Shown: positions 8,091 to 57,349, numbered from the stretch's first letter. The stretch: 64,000 nt of DNA from Chloracidobacterium sp. (GCA_016706275.1 JADJJY010000005.1:14641-78640); one strand, 5' to 3'. Translations and numbers: made by a program. Notes: generated by a model from the sequence alone, not told the origin.

Positions 8091-8894
8091 TCAAGTCGCC
8101 AAAGCCGCATTATCTGCGCCATTCTCTTGCCTGAGCCGTTTCTGCTCTTTTGTAAGCGTCAAAATTTCCGGCCCGTCCGGCGTCACCGCCAACGTATGCT
8201 CTGCGTGAGCCGAAGGTTTGCCGTCTAATGTAACTACAGTCCACTTGTCACCAAGCGTCTTTGTAGCGGCAGTTCCGAGATTGAGCATCGGCTCGATCGC
8301 AAAACAATAGCCCGCACGAATACGCTCTTTTGTGCCCGGACGCCCGTAATTTGGTATCTGTGGCGACTCATGCATCTGGCGGCCAATACCATGTCCCGTA
8401 TAATCGCGAACAATTCCGTAACCAAATTTCTCTGCGTGTTCTTGAACAGCCCAACCAATATCACCGATCCGGTTATTGACCCGAGCGGCTTGGATACCGT
8501 ACTCAAGACATTCCTCTGTCACACGAATAAGCTGTTTCAGTTCCTCGCTGATCTTGCCTACGGGAACTGTCATCGCTGTATCTCCGACAAAACCGTCATA
8601 AGTCGCGGCCATATCAAGCGAGGCAATATCACCTTCTACTAAAGGTGTAGTCTTTGAAAAACCGTGCACGATCTCATCATTGACCGACGCACATATCGCA
8701 TACGGAAACCCGTGATAACCAATAAATGTCGGTAGAGCACCCGCATCGCGGATCATCTTTTCGGCTGCATTATTCAGATCCATCGTCGAAATGCCGGGTT
8801 CGACCATCACCCGCAAAGCCTCACGCACCTCAGCGATAAGCTCGCCGACGGCACGCATTTTATCAAGGTCTTTGGCTGATTTCGCGATGATCAT
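8091..8894 (-). CDS. map: type I methionine aminopeptidase
   Basis: 267 aa with the metal-ligand context of MetAP (VHGF..., DMAATYDGFVGD, HGIG, EPM). Confidence 0.94.
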   Translation of the reverse strand: MIIAKSAKDLDKMRAVGELIAEVREALRVMVEPGISTMDLNNAAEKMIRDAGALPTFIGYHGFPYAICASVNDEIVHGFSKTTPLVEGDIASLDMAATYDGFVGDTAMTVPVGKISEELKQLIRVTEECLEYGIQAARVNNRIGDIGWAVQEHAEKFGYGIVRDYTGHGIGRQMHESPQIPNYGRPGTKERIRAGYCFAIEPMLNLGTAATKTLGDKWTVVTLDGKPSAHAEHTLAVTPDGPEILTLTKEQKRLRQENGADNAALAT

Positions 8895-8906: not shown

Positions 8907-9554
8907 TTAAGCTATGAGCTTTTCCAGCTCTGAATAAATGTCTTCGACCTCTCCGGTTCCGTCGATTTTCTTGAGCCTTCCTGAACGCTCGTAATACGCC
9001 AGCAGCGGCTCCGTATTGGTTTTATACGTATCAAGCCTCGTTCTAACGCTTTCCTCGTTATCGTCTGCACGATGGTCGAGTTTTGCATCAGGATGATCGT
9101 CACAAAACCCGTCGTTCTTTGGCGGACGCGAATAAATATTGTAGATCTCACCGCACACCGGGCAGCTTCGGCGGCCGGTCAGACGCTTGAACAATTCATC
9201 CCGCGGCACATCGACCTCGATCGCCTGAATCTCTTTTCCCTGCTCGACCGCGAGTTGCTCAAGTTGCTCAGCCTGAACCGCAGTTCGCGGATATCCGTCA
9301 AGCACGTAGGTTCCCGCAGTATCGGGTTTCGCCGTCCGTTCCCGTACGATCTTATAAGTGAGATCATCCGAAATAAGCTTGCCCGACGCCATTGTTTCCT
9401 GAACCTCACGAGCCAGCGGCGTATCCGCCTTTTTCATCTCGCGAAACATATCGCCTGTAGATATCTGCGGTATGCCTTTTCGTTCATCGAGCAGCCGAGC
9501 CTGAGTTCCCTTTCCGGCTCCCGGTGCCCCTATGAGTATGATGATCTTATCCAT
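8907..9554 (-). CDS. adk: adenylate kinase
   Basis: I place the start at MDKIIILIGAPGAGKGTQ (ATG 9552-9554). The upstream part of the track ORF (MCPLCLCGESFL) is a translation of the repeat hairpin. P-loop and lid region are present. Confidence 0.94.
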   Translation of the reverse strand: MDKIIILIGAPGAGKGTQARLLDERKGIPQISTGDMFREMKKADTPLAREVQETMASGKLISDDLTYKIVRERTAKPDTAGTYVLDGYPRTAVQAEQLEQLAVEQGKEIQAIEVDVPRDELFKRLTGRRSCPVCGEIYNIYSRPPKNDGFCDDHPDAKLDHRADDNEESVRTRLDTYKTNTEPLLAYYERSGRLKKIDGTGEVEDIYSELEKLIA

Positions 9555-49249: not shown

Positions 49250-50065
49250 TCACTTTCGATATTGACGCTCTATATTGTCTATCTTACCAACGCGTTTCAT
49301 GTGCCGTTCTTCAGAAATATCCGTCGAGATAAACGCCTCGACGATCTGTTTTATTTCCTCAAAAGAGTTTTGTCCCGCACCGAGCGTTAATACATTTGCA
49401 CCGTTATGCTCGCGGGAATTTTTCGCAAGAGCCGTCGAATAACATGCCGCCGCACGCACATTCGGCACCTTGTTCGCCGTCATTGCACTACCGATACCCG
49501 CACCGTCTATGATAATGCCGACATCGACCTGTTTGCCGGCGACCGATTTGGCAACAGCATGGGCGAAATCAGGGTAATCGACCGCCTCTTCGCTCTCGGT
49601 GCCAAAATCACGCACGTTCAGGCCAAAATCGGTCAGGAACGATTTCAACTGTTCCTTCATCTTAAACCCGCCGTGATCCGAACCGACCGCAACCGAACGA
49701 ACCTTTGCAGTATTCTTTCGGGCCTGTTTATGGATCAGCTCGATCTTTAGGTCGTTGACAATGTCTTGGGCGAGAGCGGTAAACTTTACATTCTCGGCAA
49801 CACGAAGTTTCGATCCCGGTTCAAGCCCTCGCAGGTCGTCCTCTGTTAGAAGTGTTTTGGACGATTCGTCCCGGTCAAACGCTTTGCCAAACTTACCCTG
49901 CAGTGAATTTACGACAACATGCTCGACTGCCGATGCCGCCGCCCCTGGCGACTGAACAGCATCGCCATCGGTCGGCACGGTCGCCAAAACCTGTCTTACC
50001 AATTCCCGAACTCGGTCGCGTGTATCTTTATCAACGTCAGCCATTTTTTTTGCAGAAGCCCGCAC
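49250..50065 (-). CDS. rpiB: ribose-5-phosphate isomerase B (RpiB/LacAB family) with ~120-aa N-terminal extension
   Basis: 271 aa. The core runs from RSVAVGSDHGGFKMKEQL... to ...ERHMKRV. The extension contains DTRDRVRELVRQVLATV and LLTEDDLRGLEPGSKLRVAENVKFTALAQDIVNDLKIELI. No in-frame ATG occurs between M8 and the core. Confidence 0.88.
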   Translation of the reverse strand: MRASAKKMADVDKDTRDRVRELVRQVLATVPTDGDAVQSPGAAASAVEHVVVNSLQGKFGKAFDRDESSKTLLTEDDLRGLEPGSKLRVAENVKFTALAQDIVNDLKIELIHKQARKNTAKVRSVAVGSDHGGFKMKEQLKSFLTDFGLNVRDFGTESEEAVDYPDFAHAVAKSVAGKQVDVGIIIDGAGIGSAMTANKVPNVRAAACYSTALAKNSREHNGANVLTLGAGQNSFEEIKQIVEAFISTDISEERHMKRVGKIDNIERQYRK

Positions 50066-50106
50066 GAAAGTTACGGCACTTTGAAAGCTGTTTCTAACCA
50101 GTCAGC

Positions 50107-50135
50107 TTGAAACTCAACCTATGTTTGAATAGTAT
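50107..50135 (+). promoter_or_regulatory. sigma70-like promoter candidate for hpt
   Basis: TTGAAA (50107-12), 17 nt, TAGTAT (50130-35). Confidence 0.4.
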
Positions 50136-50172
50136 GTCTAAAAACCAATTCTTTCAAATTTGCGAGGAAACC

Positions 50173-50748
50173 ATGGCAACCGGATCAACCAAAATGGCAA
50201 CTACCGAATTCACCAACTCTAACCTCGAAGTGATGTATTCTGAGGCCGACATCAAGGCCCGTATCAAGGAACTAGGCTCCGGGATAACCGCCGAATACGC
50301 CGGGAAAGACCTCGTTTTGGTCGGCGTTTTGAAAGGTTCGTGCGTATTTATGGCCGACCTGATGCGCGAGATCGATCTGCCGCTGACGATCGATTTTATG
50401 TCCGTTTCAAGCTACAAAGACGGCACTAAATCGACCGGCGATGTCGAGATCCTCAAAGATCTGAGCAATTCGATCCGCGACAAACACGTCCTCATTGTCG
50501 AAGACATTATCGACACCGGCCTGACGCTTACACGCCTCGTCGAGATCCTCGATTCACGCGGTGCGGCCTCGATCAAGATCGCGACTTTCCTCGACAAGCC
50601 CGAACCGCGAATTAAAAAAGAACTCGTCGTCGATTACACAGGCTTTGTCATCCCAAACAAATTCGTCGTCGGCTATGGACTCGACGCCGCCGGCCGCTAT
50701 CGCAACCTGCCGTTCATCGCAGTCGTGATCGATCCGTCTGTTGCCTGA
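50173..50748 (+). CDS. hpt: hypoxanthine phosphoribosyltransferase
   Basis: I place the start at ATG 50173 (GAGGAA SD; 191 aa). PRPP motif VLIVEDIIDTGLT. The track ORF starts earlier at a TTG. Confidence 0.92.
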   Translation: MATGSTKMATTEFTNSNLEVMYSEADIKARIKELGSGITAEYAGKDLVLVGVLKGSCVFMADLMREIDLPLTIDFMSVSSYKDGTKSTGDVEILKDLSNSIRDKHVLIVEDIIDTGLTLTRLVEILDSRGAASIKIATFLDKPEPRIKKELVVDYTGFVIPNKFVVGYGLDAAGRYRNLPFIAVVIDPSVA

Positions 50749-50950
50749 TCTGTCACGCAAATGCGGTTGACGCGGCGGCGCGGAGATTTGCCGGTTTACG
50801 GGTGGCGCGGTGACGTGGAGAAACGCGGGCGGGATCGTGAAAAAGATATCCTAATGACCCACGTTTTATACCAAAATGACCGTTTTGGTCATTTTGATAC
50901 GACACGATCCGTTAATATTTGGCAACACTGCTGATTTTTTCACTACACGG

Positions 50951-50979
50951 TTGACCACCCCCGACGTTTTCCGTATAAT
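50951..50979 (+). promoter_or_regulatory. near-consensus sigma70 promoter for rplU-rpmA
   Basis: TTGACC (50951-56), 17 nt, TATAAT (50974-79), 57 nt upstream of the rplU ATG. Confidence 0.55.
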
Positions 50980-51036
50980 CTGTACTTTTCGATTAACTAA
51001 GCAAATGCCGTCAATCGAGAGGAGCTAAGATAAGAA

Positions 51037-51315
51037 ATGAGTTACGCAGTTATAAGAACAGGCGGAAAGCAATTTGCGGTCGAGGGCGGCGAGACGCTTC
51101 GTGTCCCGACCATCAATGAAAAGGCCGGTGCAAAGGTCGAAGTCGAAGCTCTTGTCCTTGGCGACAAGGTAGGCGCAGCAACGGTCAAAGCGACCGTCGT
51201 CGGCCACGGCAAAGCGGATAAGATCATTGTTTTCAAAAAGAAACGCCGCAAACAGTACAAACGCAAACAAGGCCACAGACAAGGCTTTACGGAAATCAAG
51301 ATAGAAAAGATCTAA
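51037..51315 (+). CDS. rplU: 50S ribosomal protein L21
   Basis: 92 aa. [24 protein letters not shown]... Confidence 0.96.
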
Positions 51316-51329
51316 GTCTAGTGGCTTGG

Positions 51330-51364
51330 CAGGACTGACCACTGACCACTGACCACTGACCACT
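51330..51364. repeat. direct array of GACCACT heptamers (one degenerate plus four perfect)
   Basis: caggact gaccact gaccact gaccact gaccact. It fills the rplU-rpmA spacer and ends 6 nt before the rpmA ATG. Confidence 0.85.
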
Positions 51365-51370
51365 AACGAT

Positions 51371-51670
51371 ATGGCACATAAGAAAGGTGTAGGTTCATCC
51401 AGAAACGGCCGTGACTCAAACGCACAGCGGCTTGGACTCAAAAAATTTGGCGGCGAGCATGTTCTCGGCGGCAACATCATAGCCCGTCAGCGCGGCACCA
51501 AGTGGAAGCCGGGCAACAACGTCGGTCGCGGTAAAGACGACACGCTGTTCTCGCTGATTGAAGGCTTTATCAAATTCGAAGACAAAGGCCGCAAAGGCAA
51601 ATTCATCAGTGTCTACGCCGCCGGAGCACCTGAACTAGCACCGAAAGTCGTTGCCGAAGCATCTGCTTAG
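51371..51670 (+). CDS. rpmA: 50S ribosomal protein L27
   Basis: 99 aa. [31 protein letters not shown]... Confidence 0.97.
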
Positions 51671-51730
51671 TTCTTGTCAGAACCAACTGCGATAGCGGGT
51701 TATTGAACACCGATATTACTGAACATTGAG

Positions 51731-51761
51731 AAGCACACGTCGTACGGCGTGTGCTTTTTTT
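51731..51761 (+). terminator. rho-independent terminator of rplU-rpmA
   Basis: AAGCACACG tcgtacgg CGTGTGCTT followed by TTTTT. Confidence 0.75.
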
Positions 51762-52084
51762 CCCTTAACGTAGGTATAATCAGCTAGAACTGACTCCATG
51801 AAGCCTGAAGGGCCTTGAAAACCCCGCCAACGACCGCGAGACGGTAGAGTTGCTCCTGGTTCAGATCGACCGCCCCAGATTGAAGAGACTGGGTTTTGAC
51901 GTGCCTACATTCACTGGTGAACTGCGGGAGAATCAACTATAAAAACTTCTCGCCGCCAAGAATTCCGACTAGGCTCACTCAGGATACAAATCGCTTATAC
52001 GCCATCTGGTGAGTTTCCAACGAGCCTCGGAATGCGGTTCAAGCGAGCTGTAAATGCAATCGGGCTCGAGGTCTTGCTATAGGC

Positions 52085-52982
52085 CTAATTCCCGCCGATC
52101 GTCCAGTTCTGACCGAAACCAAACTTCTTATTTTCGACGCACTTGGGCGACGCCGGTACAAACGTTTTGCTCTCCTTCGAAGCCGAAAACCCTTTGTCGC
52201 TCACGATCGAGGTTTTGTAAACAAAGATTATTTTAGTTATATCGTCACCATTTGCGCCTTCGAGATCGGAACCTTGCGTATTGTTGCCGAAGTTGACAGT
52301 GATCCCGATTGGAGTCGGGATATCCGCAGCACCGTCAAATGTCACACACTGCCCCCTAGGAGGACAACTAATCGAATTCTGGTTCTGCTGAATCGTCTCG
52401 GTCTTCCACTTACCTGTACGACGATTGAAATACTTGACCGCCGTTACCTTCATAAACTTGTTGGTACCATTCCTGAATTCAAAGGTCACCTGTTTACACG
52501 AACCGCTCGGATTCTCGGGAACCGGTGCCGGAGCCTTTATCTCCCAACGTTGCCCAAACCCATAGGTCTTATCGCGGACGCATCGCGGACTCTACGGAAC
52601 AAATTCGCGGCTCTCATAGTCTTTTTCGTATTCTTATCCTCGAACACAAAACGATCTTGGTCAGATCGTCACCTTCAGCGCTACCGAGATTGTCCCAGCC
52701 AAATTTGCAATCGACATTTCTTGCGCAGGTTTTATTGGGTGTGTCCTCCGTTTTCCACTTGCCGTCGGTCCGGTTGTAATACTTTATTTTCTTGATCTCC
52801 ACCGGGCCGGGCCCGACATTCCACACGATGAACGAGACATTTTGGCACGAATCAAACCTCGCATCGAGGGAATCGTTGACAAGCGACTTCGCACCGCTGG
52901 GTTGTCCCCACCCGTTAAGAGCGTATATTATCGCCGCGATTGCCATGACAGTTGTGATCGTAAGTTTTATTCTAGATCTCAT
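52085..52982 (-). pseudogene. disrupted two-domain paralog of the 53270-54298 secreted protein
   Basis: Track ORFs 52614-52982 and 52085-52489 are the two halves. They can be joined by two frame changes, at a T4 run (52648-52651) and an A5 run (52622-52626), plus read-through of TAG 52592-52594. The joined product reads ...DDLTKIVFVFEDKNTKKDYESREFVP*SPRCVRDKTYGFGQRWEIKAPAPVPENPSGSCKQVTFEFRNG..., the same domain pattern as the intact paralog. Confidence 0.65.
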
Positions 52983-53047
52983 TTTCTCAACTCCATTTCA
53001 ACGTTAGGTTGTCATTTTCTCCCACCACTGAATGACCGCATTTAGCG

Positions 53048-53159
53048 AATTTGGCGGCGAGCATGTATACGGCGGCAAAATCATCGCACGTTCATCAGCG
53101 TCTACGCCGCCGGAGCCCCTGAACTTGCCCCGAAGGTCGTCGCCGAAGCCGCTGCCTAG
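53048..53159 (+). pseudogene. degenerate partial copy of rpmA (3' portion with internal ~115-nt deletion)
   Basis: 53048-53091 aligns with rpmA 51444-51487, and 53092-53159 with rpmA 51603-51670, including the stop. Identity is roughly 85-90 % by eye. There is no start codon and the frame is broken. Confidence 0.8.
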
Positions 53160-53219
53160 GTCACTTCAGTACCACCTGCTATACCGGGTTATTGAACCCC
53201 GATAATACTCAACATTGAG

Positions 53220-53249
53220 AAGCACACGTCGTACGGCGCGTGCTTTTTT
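53220..53249 (+). terminator. second copy of the rpmA terminator hairpin
   Basis: AAGCACACG tcgtacgg CGCGTGCTT followed by TTTT. The 60 nt before it also match the sequence downstream of rpmA (gggttattgaac.ccgata.tact.aacattgagaagcacacg). Confidence 0.7.
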
Positions 53250-53269
53250 GCTTTGTATTATGGAACGCC

Positions 53270-54298
53270 TTAAGGCTTATTCCGGTTAGGCCTTTTAACC
53301 CTGGGTTTCTTGACCGTCGTCGTGGTCGTGCCGTTAACGGCTGCTCCTGCTGCGGGATTCTCAACTCGTGCCGGCGTCTTCCTGGTTGGATTCCCTGTTG
53401 CGTTATTAGTGCTTGACGCAGAGCCCTTTGTGATCGACCAGCTTGCTCCTGTTCCATAATCCTTACCCGGACGGCAGCGTGGGTCCGTCGGAACAAACGT
53501 CTTACTTTCAAAAGGCCCGGACCACTCACCCGCCGAAAAACCGGGGTCCGCAGCAGAATGGGTTTTATACACAAAAATTATCTTAGTAATGTCTTCGCCA
53601 TCCGCATCAGCTAATGTGTCTGGGCCGACAGTACATTTCTGACCCGGCTCACATGTCACATTATTTACTTCTTCGGTCTTCCATTTACCGCTATTCCGGT
53701 TAAAGTATTTGACCTTGTCGATCTTTACATCGCTCCTACTCAAAACGTTGGAACTATTTCCCGTTTTATTCCAAACAACAAATGAAACGTCGGCACAAGA
53801 ATCGCCAATCGTATTTGATCCGGTCGTATTACCAACGATCGCCCAAGCAAATGAATCGCCATACTGTTTATTGGCACGGCACGCAGGGCTTTCCGGCCGA
53901 AACTCCTGACTGATAAAACCGCCGGTCCATCCGTTGCCCATACGCTCCTTAAATTCGTATTTTATCTTGGTGATGTTGTCCCCTTCTGCACTAGACAAAT
54001 TATCGCCGCCCGTATAGCAGCTCTGACCGGGCCGGCAAGTGTTGTACGAGAGGCTCTCCGTACGCCATTTCCCGTCAGTACTGTTGAAATACTGAACCTT
54101 AGTGACCTGGATATCTACTCTCCGGCCGTTGCGAAACGCAAATTTCACGTTCTTACAAGAGTCGAACAACGAGACCGACTCAACCACGTCTGTACTTGCC
54201 GCGACAGCTGCGCCGTAACGCAGGTACACGGCGGTCGTAGCAAAGACCGTCAGAGCCAAAACGGCTATCACGCCCCTGTTTGTTTTCATACCTATCAT
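53270..54298 (-). CDS. secreted protein with two copies of an unrecognised ~110-aa four-Cys domain and a basic low-complexity tail
   Basis: I place the start at ATG 54296-54298 (MIGMKTNRGVIAVLALTVFATTAVYL signal/anchor, GGAGG 12 nt upstream). The track ORF is 367 aa. Repeat 1 is DSCKNVKFAFRNG...VQYFNSTDGKWRTE...CRPGQSC...AEGDNITKIKYEFK...EFRPESPAC...W. Repeat 2 is DSCADVSFVVWNK...VKYFNRNSGKWKTE...CEPGQKC...ADGEDITKIIFVYK...TFVPTDPRC...W. Confidence 0.75.
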   Translation of the reverse strand: MIGMKTNRGVIAVLALTVFATTAVYLRYGAAVAASTDVVESVSLFDSCKNVKFAFRNGRRVDIQVTKVQYFNSTDGKWRTESLSYNTCRPGQSCYTGGDNLSSAEGDNITKIKYEFKERMGNGWTGGFISQEFRPESPACRANKQYGDSFAWAIVGNTTGSNTIGDSCADVSFVVWNKTGNSSNVLSRSDVKIDKVKYFNRNSGKWKTEEVNNVTCEPGQKCTVGPDTLADADGEDITKIIFVYKTHSAADPGFSAGEWSGPFESKTFVPTDPRCRPGKDYGTGASWSITKGSASSTNNATGNPTRKTPARVENPAAGAAVNGTTTTTVKKPRVKRPNRNKP

Positions 54299-54628
54299 AG
54301 AAAAACTTAACCTCCGATCTTTTTTTGACGTTATCATACACCAATTAGCCGAAAATCTATTATTTTTTTTCAAAAAAGCAGGTAGCAGTATCGAACAAAT
54401 ACTTTTTGATCTGAAAATATATCGCTCAGAAAAATTATTGTGATCTTTTTCCTACAACTTAGGGAAACTACATAATAATTGGGTGCAGATCGCACTGCGC
54501 CGTAAATCCTTTGAACCAAAACGTTACTGGATTTTCCACAATCTTATCCACATTTTTTGCACAGGCAAATCCACAGCATTTCCACAGAAGGCCTGTAAAA
54601 TAAAGGCAATAGTTAAAGTACTTTCTAC

Positions 54629-54656
54629 TTGACTTCCGTTTTTTTGGGTGTAAACT
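54629..54656 (+). promoter_or_regulatory. sigma70-like promoter candidate for the structured RNA
   Basis: TTGACT (54629-34), 16 nt, TAAACT (54651-56). Confidence 0.35.
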
Positions 54657-54662
54657 GGTTTC

Positions 54663-55167
54663 ACAGTCGAGGTTGCTAAGGGAACTTTGACCGGCACCGA
54701 GAGGTGGAGCGGACGCGGTGACGCGATCGTTTGAGAGCAGAAGGAGCGGAAAGCCGCTGCTTGGTACGCTCGGAGCCGAAGCCGAAAGGCTTGCTAAGGC
54801 CGGACGAAAGAAAGGCCAAGTTGTTCGGATAAAAACGGACAACGCCCGACGGACTTGATCAGCCAAAGGGTGCTATGTCGCTCACGTCGAAAGACGAGGG
54901 CCTCGTTGCCGGGAACGTAACCGGTGGTGGAGGAAAAGCCACCAAAAAAAGACCTAACGGCACCGTGCTTTCGAGCACAACAGTTTGAATTTATTCATTT
55001 TGGGTGCTGACCGGAGAGAGTCCTCCGCAGGAAGAGCTTCGGGATACAAAATCGGCGGTTCGAACGTGTACATGCGAGAGCCGCCAAACCTTTACCCTAC
55101 ACTTCGGTGAAAGGCAAAGAAAATAAAAGCATCGAAACGGGCAACCGGGACGATGCTTTTGTTTTTT
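54663..55167 (+). ncRNA. candidate ~0.5-kb structured non-coding RNA or long obgE leader (class unknown)
   Basis: No plus-strand ORF of 60 aa or more. At least seven local hairpins, several capped by GNRA or UUCG loops: CGCG-GUGA-CGCG 54714-25; AGCGG-AAAG-CCGCU 54745-58; AAGCC-GAAA-GGCUU 54779-92; 8-bp stem 54820-43; CGUC-GAAA-GACG 54885-96; GGUGG..CCACC 54926-43; GUGCU-UUCG-AGCAC 54965-78. It ends in a terminator AAAGCATCG...CGATGCTTT plus a T-run (55126-55167). Confidence 0.4.
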
Positions 55168-55231
55168 GGCGCGAGTTCGTGGAATTTGTTCGACTTCCCC
55201 TATCGCCGGCAAAGGCTTAGAATAGAAAGTT

Positions 55232-56263
55232 ATGTTCATTGACCGCGTAAAGATCAAGGTAAAGGCCGGTGACGGCGGCAACGGTGTCACGGCTTTTCGG
55301 CGCGAAAAATTTATCCCTCGCGGCGGACCCTCTGGAGGCGATGGCGGTGTTGGCGGCTGCGTGTATATGGAATCGCACGAAGGGCTCAACACTCTGCTGC
55401 ACCTGCGTTACAATCCCGAACACAAGGCCGAACGCGGCCGCCACGGCGAAGGTTCTAACCGTTATGGCAAGGACGGCGAAGACGCTGTCGTCAAGGTACC
55501 GGTCGGCACGCAAGTTTTTGATCCTGAGACTAATGAACTGCTTTTTGATTTCACCGAGCCCGGACAGCGTTATATGGCGGCTAAGGGCGGCAAAGGCGGC
55601 TGGGGCAACTCACACTTTGCGACCGCCACGCGGCAGGCTCCGAAATATCATTACAACGGCCGCCCTGGCGGCGAACGCGAGTTGCAGCTTGAGCTAAAAC
55701 TGATCGCCGATGTCGGGCTGGTCGGCTTTCCAAACGCTGGCAAATCGACGCTGATCTCAGTCATCTCCGCGGCAAAGCCAAAGATCGCCGATTACCCTTT
55801 TACGACGCTTGAGCCCAATTTAGGCGTTGTTGATATGGGTGATTTCAGGACATTTGTCGTCGCCGACATCCCCGGACTCATCGAAGGTGCATCGGACGGA
55901 GCGGGGCTTGGACATCGTTTTCTTCGCCACGTCGAGCGGACAAAACTGATGCTGCATCTCGTAGATGTCTCGTCGCTGTCGGGTCGTGATCCGGTTTCGG
56001 ATTACGAGATCATCAACCGAGAGCTTGCCAATTACGACGCCGACCTCGCAAAACGCCCGCAGCTCATCGTCGCAACAAAGATCGACGCCATGGACGACCC
56101 CGACCGCCTCGATGCCTTAAAGAAAAGGGCGAAAAAGGACAAAATGCCTTTCTTTGAGATCTCGTCAGTAACGAACAAAGGCGTAAAAGATCTGGTGAGT
56201 GCAGTTGCGGTCGCGTTAGACGAAATAACCAGAGAAGAAGCTGAGAAAGCGGCTGCGGTTTAG
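55232..56263 (+). CDS. obgE: GTPase Obg/CgtA
   Basis: 343 aa. [27 protein letters not shown]..., with the G-domain motif GFPNAGKST. Confidence 0.96.
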
Positions 56264-56264
56264 C

Positions 56265-56921
56265 ATGAAACGTATCGCATTTTATGGAGGCTCATTTGAC
56301 CCGCCGCATCGCGGGCATCTCGCGATAGCCGATGCGTTGGTCGATCGGTTTGGGCTCGATGCGTTTGTTTTTATCCCGGCCTTTCATGCCCCGCATAAGG
56401 CCCGGCTAAAGCCAACATCCGCCTATGATCGCTACACGATGCTGTGTCTCGCGACACAGAATTCGGCAAACATTACCGTTTCGCAATTTGAGATCGAGAT
56501 GCCCGAACGACCGTATTCGGTCGAGACGCTTTCGCGGATCCTCGAACAGATGCCGGATGACGAGATCTATTTTGTCATCGGTGCAGATTCTTGGCGGGAC
56601 ATCCTGACTTGGCGTGAATGGGAAAAGGTCATGACAATGGTCAATATCATTGTCGTCACGCGGCCGGGCGTCGAGATCGGTTTTGATCATGTTACCGACA
56701 ACATCCGTGAGAGGATAGTCGATCTGCGGAATGGCGAAGAGGAGAAAAGGCGAAGAGGAGAGCGGGCGAATCCGCAATCTATTTTCATCACCGACGCGGT
56801 CAATATGGACATTTCCGCGACCGAAATTCGCCGTAAGATCCGCGAAGAAGACCCGACATGGCACGAAGATGTAACTGCCGAGGTTGCAAATTACGTCGAA
56901 AAATATCAGATTTATAGCTAA
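56265..56921 (+). CDS. nadD: nicotinate-nucleotide adenylyltransferase
   Basis: 218 aa. ...GGSFDPPHRGHL... and the ISATEIR motif. Confidence 0.93.
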   Translation: MKRIAFYGGSFDPPHRGHLAIADALVDRFGLDAFVFIPAFHAPHKARLKPTSAYDRYTMLCLATQNSANITVSQFEIEMPERPYSVETLSRILEQMPDDEIYFVIGADSWRDILTWREWEKVMTMVNIIVVTRPGVEIGFDHVTDNIRERIVDLRNGEEEKRRRGERANPQSIFITDAVNMDISATEIRRKIREEDPTWHEDVTAEVANYVEKYQIYS

Positions 56922-57349
56922 TGGAAGAAACACAGGAAAGATCGCTTCAACGCGAAGCGGTCAAGATAGAAATAGCAGAAAAGCCAACCAAGTTTTCCGA
57001 ACTCGACCCCGAAGTAAAACTCGCGATCCAATGTGCCAGTGACAAAAAGGCATACGACCTAGTCGCGCTCGATCTACGCAGCATTGCCAGCTTTACCGAG
57101 TTTTTTATTATCGCAACCGGAGCCAACCAACGTCAGGTACAGGCCATCGCCGATGAGATCAAGGAGCAGCTAAAAGAACAGCTCAACTCACGTCCCGTGC
57201 GTATCGAGGGATATGCCAGCGGCGAATGGGTGCTTGTCGATTACGGCGATTTCATTGTTCACGTATTTAATAAAGAGGCTCGTGAGTTTTACGACCTCGC
57301 CCGATTGTGGCTGGATGCACGCAAAGTCGAACTGCCGGCAGACATTTAA
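56921..57349 (+). CDS. rsfS: ribosome silencing factor RsfS
   Basis: 142 aa. ...DKKAYDLVALDLRSIASFTEFFIIATG...; TAATG overlap with nadD. Confidence 0.92.
   Translation: MEETQERSLQREAVKIEIAEKPTKFSELDPEVKLAIQCASDKKAYDLVALDLRSIASFTEFFIIATGANQRQVQAIADEIKEQLKEQLNSRPVRIEGYASGEWVLVDYGDFIVHVFNKEAREFYDLARLWLDARKVELPADI

Follow-up and report, generated by a model that had tools for sequence, protein, structure and literature searches.

A predicted structured RNA gene and a strain-variable cargo slot between rpmA and obg in Pyrinomonadaceae

Recombination hotspots between core genes are a concept from the comparative genomics of horizontal transfer, and Campbell-type integration and homology-facilitated illegitimate recombination have been described for naturally transformable bacteria. 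OLE, GOLLD, ROOL, and raiA are large “ornate” bacterial non-coding RNAs (ncRNAs) whose function is unknown or poorly known (PMC12286853, PMC12054373). Here we describe a locus with features of each of these systems, the interval between rpmA (ribosomal protein L27) and obg (GTPase Obg) in a stretch of 64,000 nucleotides (nt) from Chloracidobacterium sp. (GCA_016706275.1 JADJJY010000005.1:14641-78640), which we refer to as the window. In the window, the two genes are separated by 3561 nt (Table 1). It is likely that this interval is a composite, made up of an accessory cargo slot and an unrelated core gene for a structured RNA, and that these two parts explain it as a whole. We regard the RNA gene as a putative new class among elements of a known kind; the accessory segment is ordinary.

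The predicted RNA gene upstream of obg

The relatives used for comparison were a set of 80 obg loci from GTDB contigs, with one genome per species. DNA comparison of these loci revealed that only window 54500-55170 was common to most of them (69-96% identity), and nhmmer found the RNA in 63/80 loci and a single copy in the window. When 50 genomes were aligned, the order of elements was DnaA-box-like motifs, covarying hairpin, AT-rich block, promoter, RNA, and terminator. The AT-rich block upstream of the -35 hexamer (AATAGTTAAAGTAyTTTCTAC) is invariant across the 50 genomes and the promoter is near-invariant, with TTGACA/T at -35 and TAAGAT or TAAACT at -10. In the window these hexamers are TTGACT (54629-54634) and TAAACT (54651-54656), with a 16-nt spacer. 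Within the RNA part, invariant blocks (e.g., GCCUCGUUGCCGG..CGUAACCGGNGGUGGAGGAAAAGCCACC) alternate with hairpins that are variable in sequence and length and keep their pairing, and these variable hairpins have UUCG or GNRA loops. The terminator has its arms at 55120-55134 and 55151-55165, and compensatory changes were observed at 12/12 of its stem pairs.

The conservation of secondary structure with compensatory substitutions, as expected of a structured RNA, was pronounced. In comparison to shuffled sequence, the + strand folded with z = -5.95 and the minus strand with z = -1.8. RNAalifold predicted 109 pairs, 66 of them with compensatory changes. For the 108 pairs that were tested, 96.4% of cells were paired versus 35-42% in slid controls, in which the 3' partner was moved by 1-3 columns, and double changes were found in 66 pairs (519 cells) versus 17-36 pairs (34-99 cells) in those controls. 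No column shuffle out of 500 reached the observed values. A protein-coding reading of the region was ruled out by frame-breaking indels (91% of indels were not multiples of three) and by the lack of conservation of its open reading frames (ORFs), the longest of which were 46-167 amino acids (aa) and mostly on the opposite strand. Conservation and covariation show that 54532-55167 is a conserved, putative transcription unit for a structured RNA of ~505 nt. The RNA most likely acts in trans, and we predict that it does so as a protein-binding scaffold or a catalytic RNA.

These results bear on an earlier annotation of the window made from its sequence alone (the original prediction), which had listed an ORF-free, hairpin-dense stretch with promoter-like and terminator-like signals at the end of a segment regarded as accessory throughout. 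The signals are real, being the hexamers and terminator arms given above. That the segment is accessory holds for most of the interval, but not for the last ~0.65 kilobases (kb), which are present in 63/80 relatives and, among the non-coding features of the locus, are conserved best.

The five DnaA-box-like motifs upstream of the promoter read, in order, TTTTCCACA, TTATCCACA, TTTTGCACA, AAATCCACA, and ATTTCCACA. The first of these is at 54532, the second, at 54544, is a perfect box (TTATCCACA being the DnaA-box consensus), and the remaining three each have two mismatches. The 50-genome alignment has four or five such motifs, in one orientation. Across the 50 genomes, boxes with ≤1 mismatch occur at a mean of 2.9 in the 133 nt upstream of the promoter, exclusively on the + strand, whereas the frequency of boxes in the transcribed part would predict ~0.009. 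In this clade, the array would probably put transcription of the RNA under DnaA control or make the locus a site of DnaA binding.

Between the array and the promoter we noted a small hairpin at window 54591-54607 (GCCT-GTAAAATAA-AGGC), whose pairing survives sequence change in relatives (e.g., CCCGTAAAATAAGGG versus CCCGTGTTTATTGGG). Possible roles for this hairpin are those of a palindrome bound by a protein and of a terminator that insulates the promoter region.

Table 1. Features of the rpmA-obg interval and its flanks (window coordinates).
Feature	Position	Strand	Basis
rplU	51037-51315	+	Pfam L21p
rpmA (ribosomal protein L27), intact	51371-51670	+	Pfam Ribosomal_L27, E = 1.8e-35
Direct-repeat copy 1: rpmA nt 74-300, 60-nt spacer, intrinsic terminator	51444-51760	+	
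Pseudogene of small (~87-aa) protein	51808-52038	+	tblastn 61% identity, E = 8e-27
P1, pseudogene of secreted two-domain beta-sandwich protein	52085-52982	-	tblastn, two frames
Direct-repeat copy 2: displaced rpmA 3' fragment, spacer, terminator	53048-53249	+	
P2, intact 342-aa secreted or anchored protein	53270-54298	-	ORF
AT-rich stretch upstream of P2, 35-40% GC, promoter-like site 54444-54416	54299-54500	-	
Five same-orientation DnaA-box-like motifs, ~11.5 nt apart	54532-54586	+	
Promoter of RNA gene	54609-54656	+	Promoter scan; 50-genome alignment
~505-nt structured non-coding RNA, ends predicted from promoter/terminator, >=19 helices	54663-55167	+	
Intrinsic terminator of RNA gene	55120-55167	+	Inverted repeat; 12-pair stem, then T run
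obg (GTPase Obg), right-hand core gene	55232-56263	+	Pfam GTP1_OBG, E = 3.3e-60

Distribution and identity of the RNA

A metagenome scan, for which the invariant block CGTAACCGGNGGTGGAGG(N)AAAGCCAC was the probe, revealed at least 120 contigs with the RNA, in two clades. Clade 1 contigs have the RNA between rpmA and obg, with scores of 320-510 bits. Clade 2 contigs score 200-250 bits and always have it between a HIT-family gene and a VOC-EamA pair, and they have an A-tract and a TTGAyC-17-TATAAA promoter, with no DnaA boxes. In a joint alignment of both clades the same helices were found, with 91 pairs, 59 of them compensated, and there were compensatory changes between the clades. A shared protein partner encoded beside the RNA was considered and dropped, since no protein gene neighbors the RNA in both clades. 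The recovered copies were all labeled as Pyrinomonadaceae or as a closely related Blastocatellia/Acidobacteriota metagenome-assembled genome (MAG), or were from an unassigned metagenome contig, and the best named relative of the VOC neighbor in clade 2 was likewise from a Pyrinomonadaceae MAG. The RNA had no match on phage or plasmid records.

Several individual contigs merit description. Clade 2 examples (L088, L099, L104, L112, and L113) encode a HIT-family hydrolase, a VOC (glyoxalase-like) protein, and an EamA transporter, with lexA nearby. Two copies of the RNA gene were observed 4.5 kb apart in L041 (4860-5379 and 9365-9819), and two head-to-tail copies about 680 nt apart in L133 (74-592 and 796-1208, minus strand). 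In L070 a weak 77-nt second match to the RNA model (9352-9428) is directly upstream of obg, and the full RNA gene is 7 kb off, adjoining rpmA; the short match may be an insertion scar on the obg side. A ~190-nt piece of the clade 2 RNA core was also found at L204:206-395 (IMGVR_UViG_3300048099_000016), in a levivirus-type single-stranded RNA phage genome that encodes a Phage_mat-A maturation protein, a coat-size ORF, and an RNA_replicase_B with YGDD. The piece is located near the 5' end, where GC-rich sequence of 205 nt, unrelated to the RNA, precedes it. As the genome of an RNA phage, L204 must stem from RNA-derived data. Its simplest explanation is that reads of such origin were assembled into a chimera, the alternative being a true recombinant, and a chimera of this kind would indirectly indicate that the RNA is transcribed.

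Searches against known RNA families gave little. Rfam 15 had zero matches at E <= 1 over 50000-57000 (7 kb), and a scan of 54600-55200 alone returned four terminator-type matches, all with E > 1 and far below gathering scores. The families covered by Rfam 15 include RNase P RNA, transfer-messenger RNA (tmRNA), 6S, signal recognition particle (SRP) RNA, OLE, GOLLD, ROOL, raiA, HEARO, Acido-1, and Acido-Lenti-1, none of which matched. ARAGORN found no tmRNA, the only hit in the window being a tRNA-Phe elsewhere, and in the literature we found no description of this RNA. On balance, we lean toward the RNA being an undescribed class of large structured RNA that is specific to Pyrinomonadaceae-type soil Acidobacteriota, with a 60-nt invariant core that suggests a conserved macromolecular partner or a catalytic center, and whose expression in one clade would be wired to the replication initiator DnaA, beside the ribosome-assembly genes for L21, L27, and Obg.

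Three other readings of the 0.5-kb stretch are together very unlikely: that it is a cis-acting leader for obg, that it is an origin of replication, and that it is a divergent copy of a known RNA overlooked by the Rfam models. A leader could be suspected, as the element ends 65 nt upstream of obg in the window, but a leader or riboswitch would have a constant position directly upstream of its gene and no terminator of its own. This element is closed by a strong covarying terminator, it is >1 kb from obg in 21/63 loci, and the clade 2 copies are between HIT-family and VOC genes. An origin was suggested by the cluster of DnaA boxes and the AT-rich DNA before the RNA, and was rejected because there is no sign change in GC skew. 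At the 2-kb scale, negative skew flanks the site in the window, except in the obg operon, and the skew was likewise negative to either side in 18/26 loci (those with 7 kb on each side); nor are 66 compensatory base pairs on one strand expected of an origin. Short strings resembling RNase P motifs (e.g., GAGGAAAAGCC) are the point in favor of a known RNA, against which stand the Rfam and ARAGORN results, the absence of 5'-3' terminal pairing, and the restriction of every recovered copy to the close relatives and unassigned contigs named above.

The cargo slot between rpmA and the RNA gene

The part of the interval from 51761 to ~54500 is a strain-variable cargo slot and a family-wide recombination hotspot in Pyrinomonadaceae. 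Its flanks are highly conserved (rplU-rpmA to the left, the RNA gene and obg to the right), its content varies among close relatives, and empty sites exist. The window itself is from a Pyrinomonadaceae-type acidobacterium, the best matches of its obg being from Pyrinomonadaceae or Chloracidobacterium MAGs (95-99% aa identity). The original prediction had proposed looking for such empty sites, and three loci of the closest relatives (L002, L004, and L008) have only ~248 nt from the rpmA stop to the conserved element, in genomes with an obg 89-98% identical to that of the window. Other loci have different cargo in the slot: a DUF3144 gene in L003, two unrelated + strand genes in L005, a cupin-like gene in L012, and in L017, L029, and L076 a pair of genes, one small and the other encoding a nucleotidyltransferase (Pfam DUF6036). 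In L001, the closest relative, the contig ends ~90 nt upstream of the conserved element. Pfam identified no recombinase domain in the cargo proteins of relatives, and PADLOC had no match for P2 or for the small-protein, DUF6036, and L005 cargo proteins. The distance from rpmA to obg was 170-8722 nt, with a median of 2247 nt, in the 47/80 loci that also hold rpmA, and insertions were found on both sides of the RNA gene. Because of this span, the 3.5-kb gap is ordinary for the family and not unusual, as had been thought.

The cargo of the window consists of two pseudogenes and one intact gene. The small-protein pseudogene, located in the ~320 nt that the original prediction had listed as ORF-poor DNA, is 5'-truncated and has two in-frame stops; in L017, L029, and L076 the intact small gene follows the rpmA terminator and precedes the DUF6036 nucleotidyltransferase gene. 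The reading frame of P1 shifts near 52620-52650 and is interrupted by an in-frame TAG codon (52592-52594), and just 65 nt of the DNA upstream of P1 are kept. The closest relative of P1 is P0021 (50-56% aa identity), of a different subfamily than that of P2, and the locus of P0021 is unrelated, adjoining DnaJ and TPR genes rather than rpmA. P2 is probably a surface or secreted protein. It begins with a hydrophobic helix at the N-terminus, followed by two beta-sandwich domains that contain conserved Cys residues, and its tail is basic and disordered. P1 and P2 are paralogs with 38-39% aa identity.

Homologs of P2 are rare, with only 21 clusters found among 5.8 billion proteins (P0001 at 92% identity, P0002 at 84%, others at 35-43%), and a homolog was encoded in 0/80 obg loci. 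No Pfam domain was found in P2 or its 21 homolog clusters, and the P1 fragments were also without a Pfam family. The AlphaFold model of P2 had a predicted local distance difference test (pLDDT) score of 68.5, and Foldseek returned only generic immunoglobulin-like, pilin, or cytokine-receptor matches with template-modeling (TM) scores below 0.2 (0.13-0.18 for the two-domain immunoglobulin-like matches). No function was assigned to P2. Elsewhere, members of the P1/P2 family often occur as adjacent paralog pairs (e.g., L203:4259-6189; proteins P0009, P0012, P0014, and P0020), and some have an extra ~250-aa C-terminal domain. The AT-rich stretch upstream of P2 is the right end of the variable cargo, and homology to relatives without P2 begins at about 54500-54530.

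The features that the original prediction had listed (the flanks, the repeat, P1, P2, and the ORF-free stretch) were all found where it had placed them, including the disrupted P1 and its intact two-domain secreted paralog P2, and a genuine second copy of the rpmA 3' end and terminator. The rpmA part of copy 2 has nt 74-117 joined to about nt 227-300. In the alignment of the repeats, 51444-51487 corresponds to 53048-53091 and 51597-51760 to 53086-53249, each at 86% identity, with ~109 nt (51488-51596) missing from copy 2. The same terminator hairpin ends both copies (51731-51756 in copy 1, followed by a T run). Among the sequences sampled, the two copies are closest to each other, with 175/203 positions identical versus 74-81% identity to orthologs.

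Comparison of the two copies with 7 close orthologs, at 13 informative sites, revealed an asymmetric pattern. In the 5' block copy 1 had the ortholog state at 4/4 sites (4:0), and in the 3' block copy 2 had it at 7/9 sites (7:2). Copy 1, the functional one, had unique or L005-like states in the 3' block, and its final ~60 nt of rpmA had substitutions absent from close orthologs. Such a pattern would be yielded by a single crossover between resident and incoming rpmA.

Two further loci are informative regarding the order of events. L202 has rpmA, terminator, a P2 ortholog, and the conserved RNA element, in that order, and lacks both P1 and the rpmA fragment. Its sequence aligns colinearly to window 53091-54746 (88.5% identity), and its P2 ortholog is 92% identical to P2. 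L201 has the same rpmA-terminator-P2 junction, followed by two L005-type genes. Copy 2 represents the original rpmA 3' end, still joined to P2, because the sequence after its terminator runs on into L202, which that of copy 1 does not. These comparisons show that the resident state in this genome was rpmA-terminator-P2, as is still seen in L202. The segment was not gained in one event, as had been supposed in the original prediction: P2 is older and common to L201 and L202, and the P1 block came later.

For the rpmA repeat, the best interpretation is that it is a scar left by an insertion anchored through homology. We hypothesize that a second block, comprising an rpmA 3' part, a terminator, the small-gene remnant, and P1, recombined in later, with one crossover inside rpmA and an illegitimate join at rpmA nt 73/74 (junction 53047/53048). 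Such an event would be a single-crossover (Campbell-type) or a homology-facilitated illegitimate recombination, and would have restored rpmA as an intact hybrid gene while pushing its former 3' end aside, to remain before P2 as a ~200-nt scar. Neither a full promoter nor a partner gene would have come in with the new genes, which have since become pseudogenes, and P2 is still intact. The origin of the segment had been called unclear, but the rpmA fragment probably marks this recombination event anchored in rpmA.

An independent instance of the same scar was observed at L012:7848-9060. There, rpmA is followed by the inserted cupin-like secreted-protein gene (8173-8679), and between this insert and the nearby RNA gene the 3' part of rpmA occurs again (8915-9060, 83-93% identical). 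As in the window, it is the rpmA fragment that holds the more ortholog-like C-terminus.

Other origins of the repeat have to be weighed against this insertion. It is unlikely that a single unit (rpmA 3' end, terminator, and secreted-protein gene) was simply duplicated in tandem, with later decay of the rpmA piece and of one gene copy, even though the repeats are head-to-tail and ~1.5-1.6 kb apart, the genes that follow them are like-oriented members of one family, and the rpmA copies are mutually closest. A duplicated unit would have diverged evenly along its length, and duplication of the whole unit does not fit because DNA identity between the repeats is 86%, as against an aa identity of only 38% between P1 and P2. 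The tree-like distances observed refute such a duplication. P2 has changed by only 8% since its split from L202, P1 groups with the other subfamily, that of P0021, an unrelated small-gene pseudogene is in the first unit only, and in the rpmA 3' block it is the functional copy that departs from the orthologs. Quite improbable, in turn, is the remnant of an integrase-type island that targeted the rpmA 3' end, brought a replacement 3' end as tRNA-targeting islands do, and has since lost its integrase. The topology of such an island does match: the target gene is whole again, its original 3' end has ended up beyond the insert, and the insert lies between direct repeats derived from that 3' end. 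However, an island should have a recombinase gene or remnant inside it, and the ~1.3 kb between the repeats (51761-53047) are wholly filled by two pseudogenes of families unrelated to recombinases. Our search of the interval, in agreement with the original prediction, found no integrase or transposase ORF, and there was no Pfam recombinase domain in the region and no PADLOC match for the cargo proteins. The repeat of 200-317 nt is also far above the typical length of an attachment core, and the cargo of relatives in the same slot is likewise without integrases.

The original prediction had also raised the concern of misassembly, and we give hardly any credence to the duplicated rpmA piece being an assembly chimera of two strains. 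The slot is strain-variable, and contig breaks such as that of L001 ~90 nt upstream of the RNA gene occur in assemblies at heterogeneous sites, but the two copies are 14% divergent, an internal deletion of 109 nt gives copy 2 the look of a pseudogene, the junction at 53047/53048 is not at shared sequence that would permit an assembler to switch strains, and the independent genome L012 has the same architecture. The duplication was judged not to be an artefact.

Several points weigh against the composite account of a core RNA gene beside a slot with an rpmA-anchored insertion. For the RNA, the evidence that the ~505 nt are transcribed is indirect only, consisting of the conserved promoter and terminator and the piece in the RNA phage genome. 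DnaA boxes are absent in clade 2 and are thus not intrinsic to the function of the RNA. For the insertion, the crossover pattern stands on 13 informative sites only (Fisher p about 0.02), and no donor with rpmA, terminator, remnant, and P1 was found, the nearest P1 relative, P0021, not being beside rpmA. Alternatively, the arrangement in L202 could have arisen secondarily, through loss of the DNA between the repeats, and would then not be ancestral.

Two observations were made in the surrounding DNA. Four tandem copies of the heptamer ACTGACC are located between rplU and rpmA (window 51334-51361), and similar heptamer arrays were found in L037 (3444-3501 and 3736-3797), as well as in L019 and L047. 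At window 49250-50065 (minus strand) there is a gene for an RpiB/LacAB-type isomerase with an N-terminal extension of ~120 aa that has no Pfam match, the Pfam domain spanning residues 125-262 of 271 only.

Comparison with known systems

The cargo slot is ordinary biology, and a clean example of gene swapping via conserved flanks without mobile elements. Similar to described hotspots between core genes, it accommodates different, unrelated cargo, has empty sites, and has no mobile-element genes, and exchange by homologous recombination in the conserved flanks is plausible. It differs in that one of its flanks is an ncRNA gene, and in that partial rpmA copies were left at least twice, in the window and in L012. 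Such imprecise events leave gene-fragment scars that can be mistaken for duplications or misassemblies. The scar in the window resembles Campbell-type and homology-facilitated events: a single homologous anchor is paired with a single illegitimate junction, the target gene ends up as an intact hybrid, and the insert is flanked by a direct repeat of the anchor. Unlike the described events, it is inferred from sequence only, and no donor allele was found.

Clusters of DnaA boxes outside oriC include E. coli datA and DARS, those of B. subtilis, and DnaA-regulated promoters. The cluster described here is like these in having several close consensus boxes, in being intergenic and off any GC-skew switch, and in its position directly upstream of a promoter. 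It is unlike them in that its boxes are all in one orientation with ~12-nt phasing, before a structured ncRNA gene, and DnaA binding is predicted. Through the DnaA boxes at its promoter in one clade, the RNA would be linked to the initiation of replication, a connection that lends itself to direct testing.

Large structured bacterial RNAs with unknown function are few (e.g., OLE, GOLLD, ROOL, and raiA), and each has opened new biology. The RNA described here is abundant in soil metagenomes, with unusually clear covariation, and comes from a poorly studied phylum. It differs from the four named in that it matches none of them in sequence or structure in Rfam 15, has no conserved partner protein gene nearby and no match in phage or plasmid records, and is confined to Pyrinomonadaceae-type Acidobacteriota. 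Like the four, it falls in the ~0.5-kb size class, has its own predicted promoter and terminator and no obvious function, and combines many covariation-supported helices with absolutely conserved blocks.

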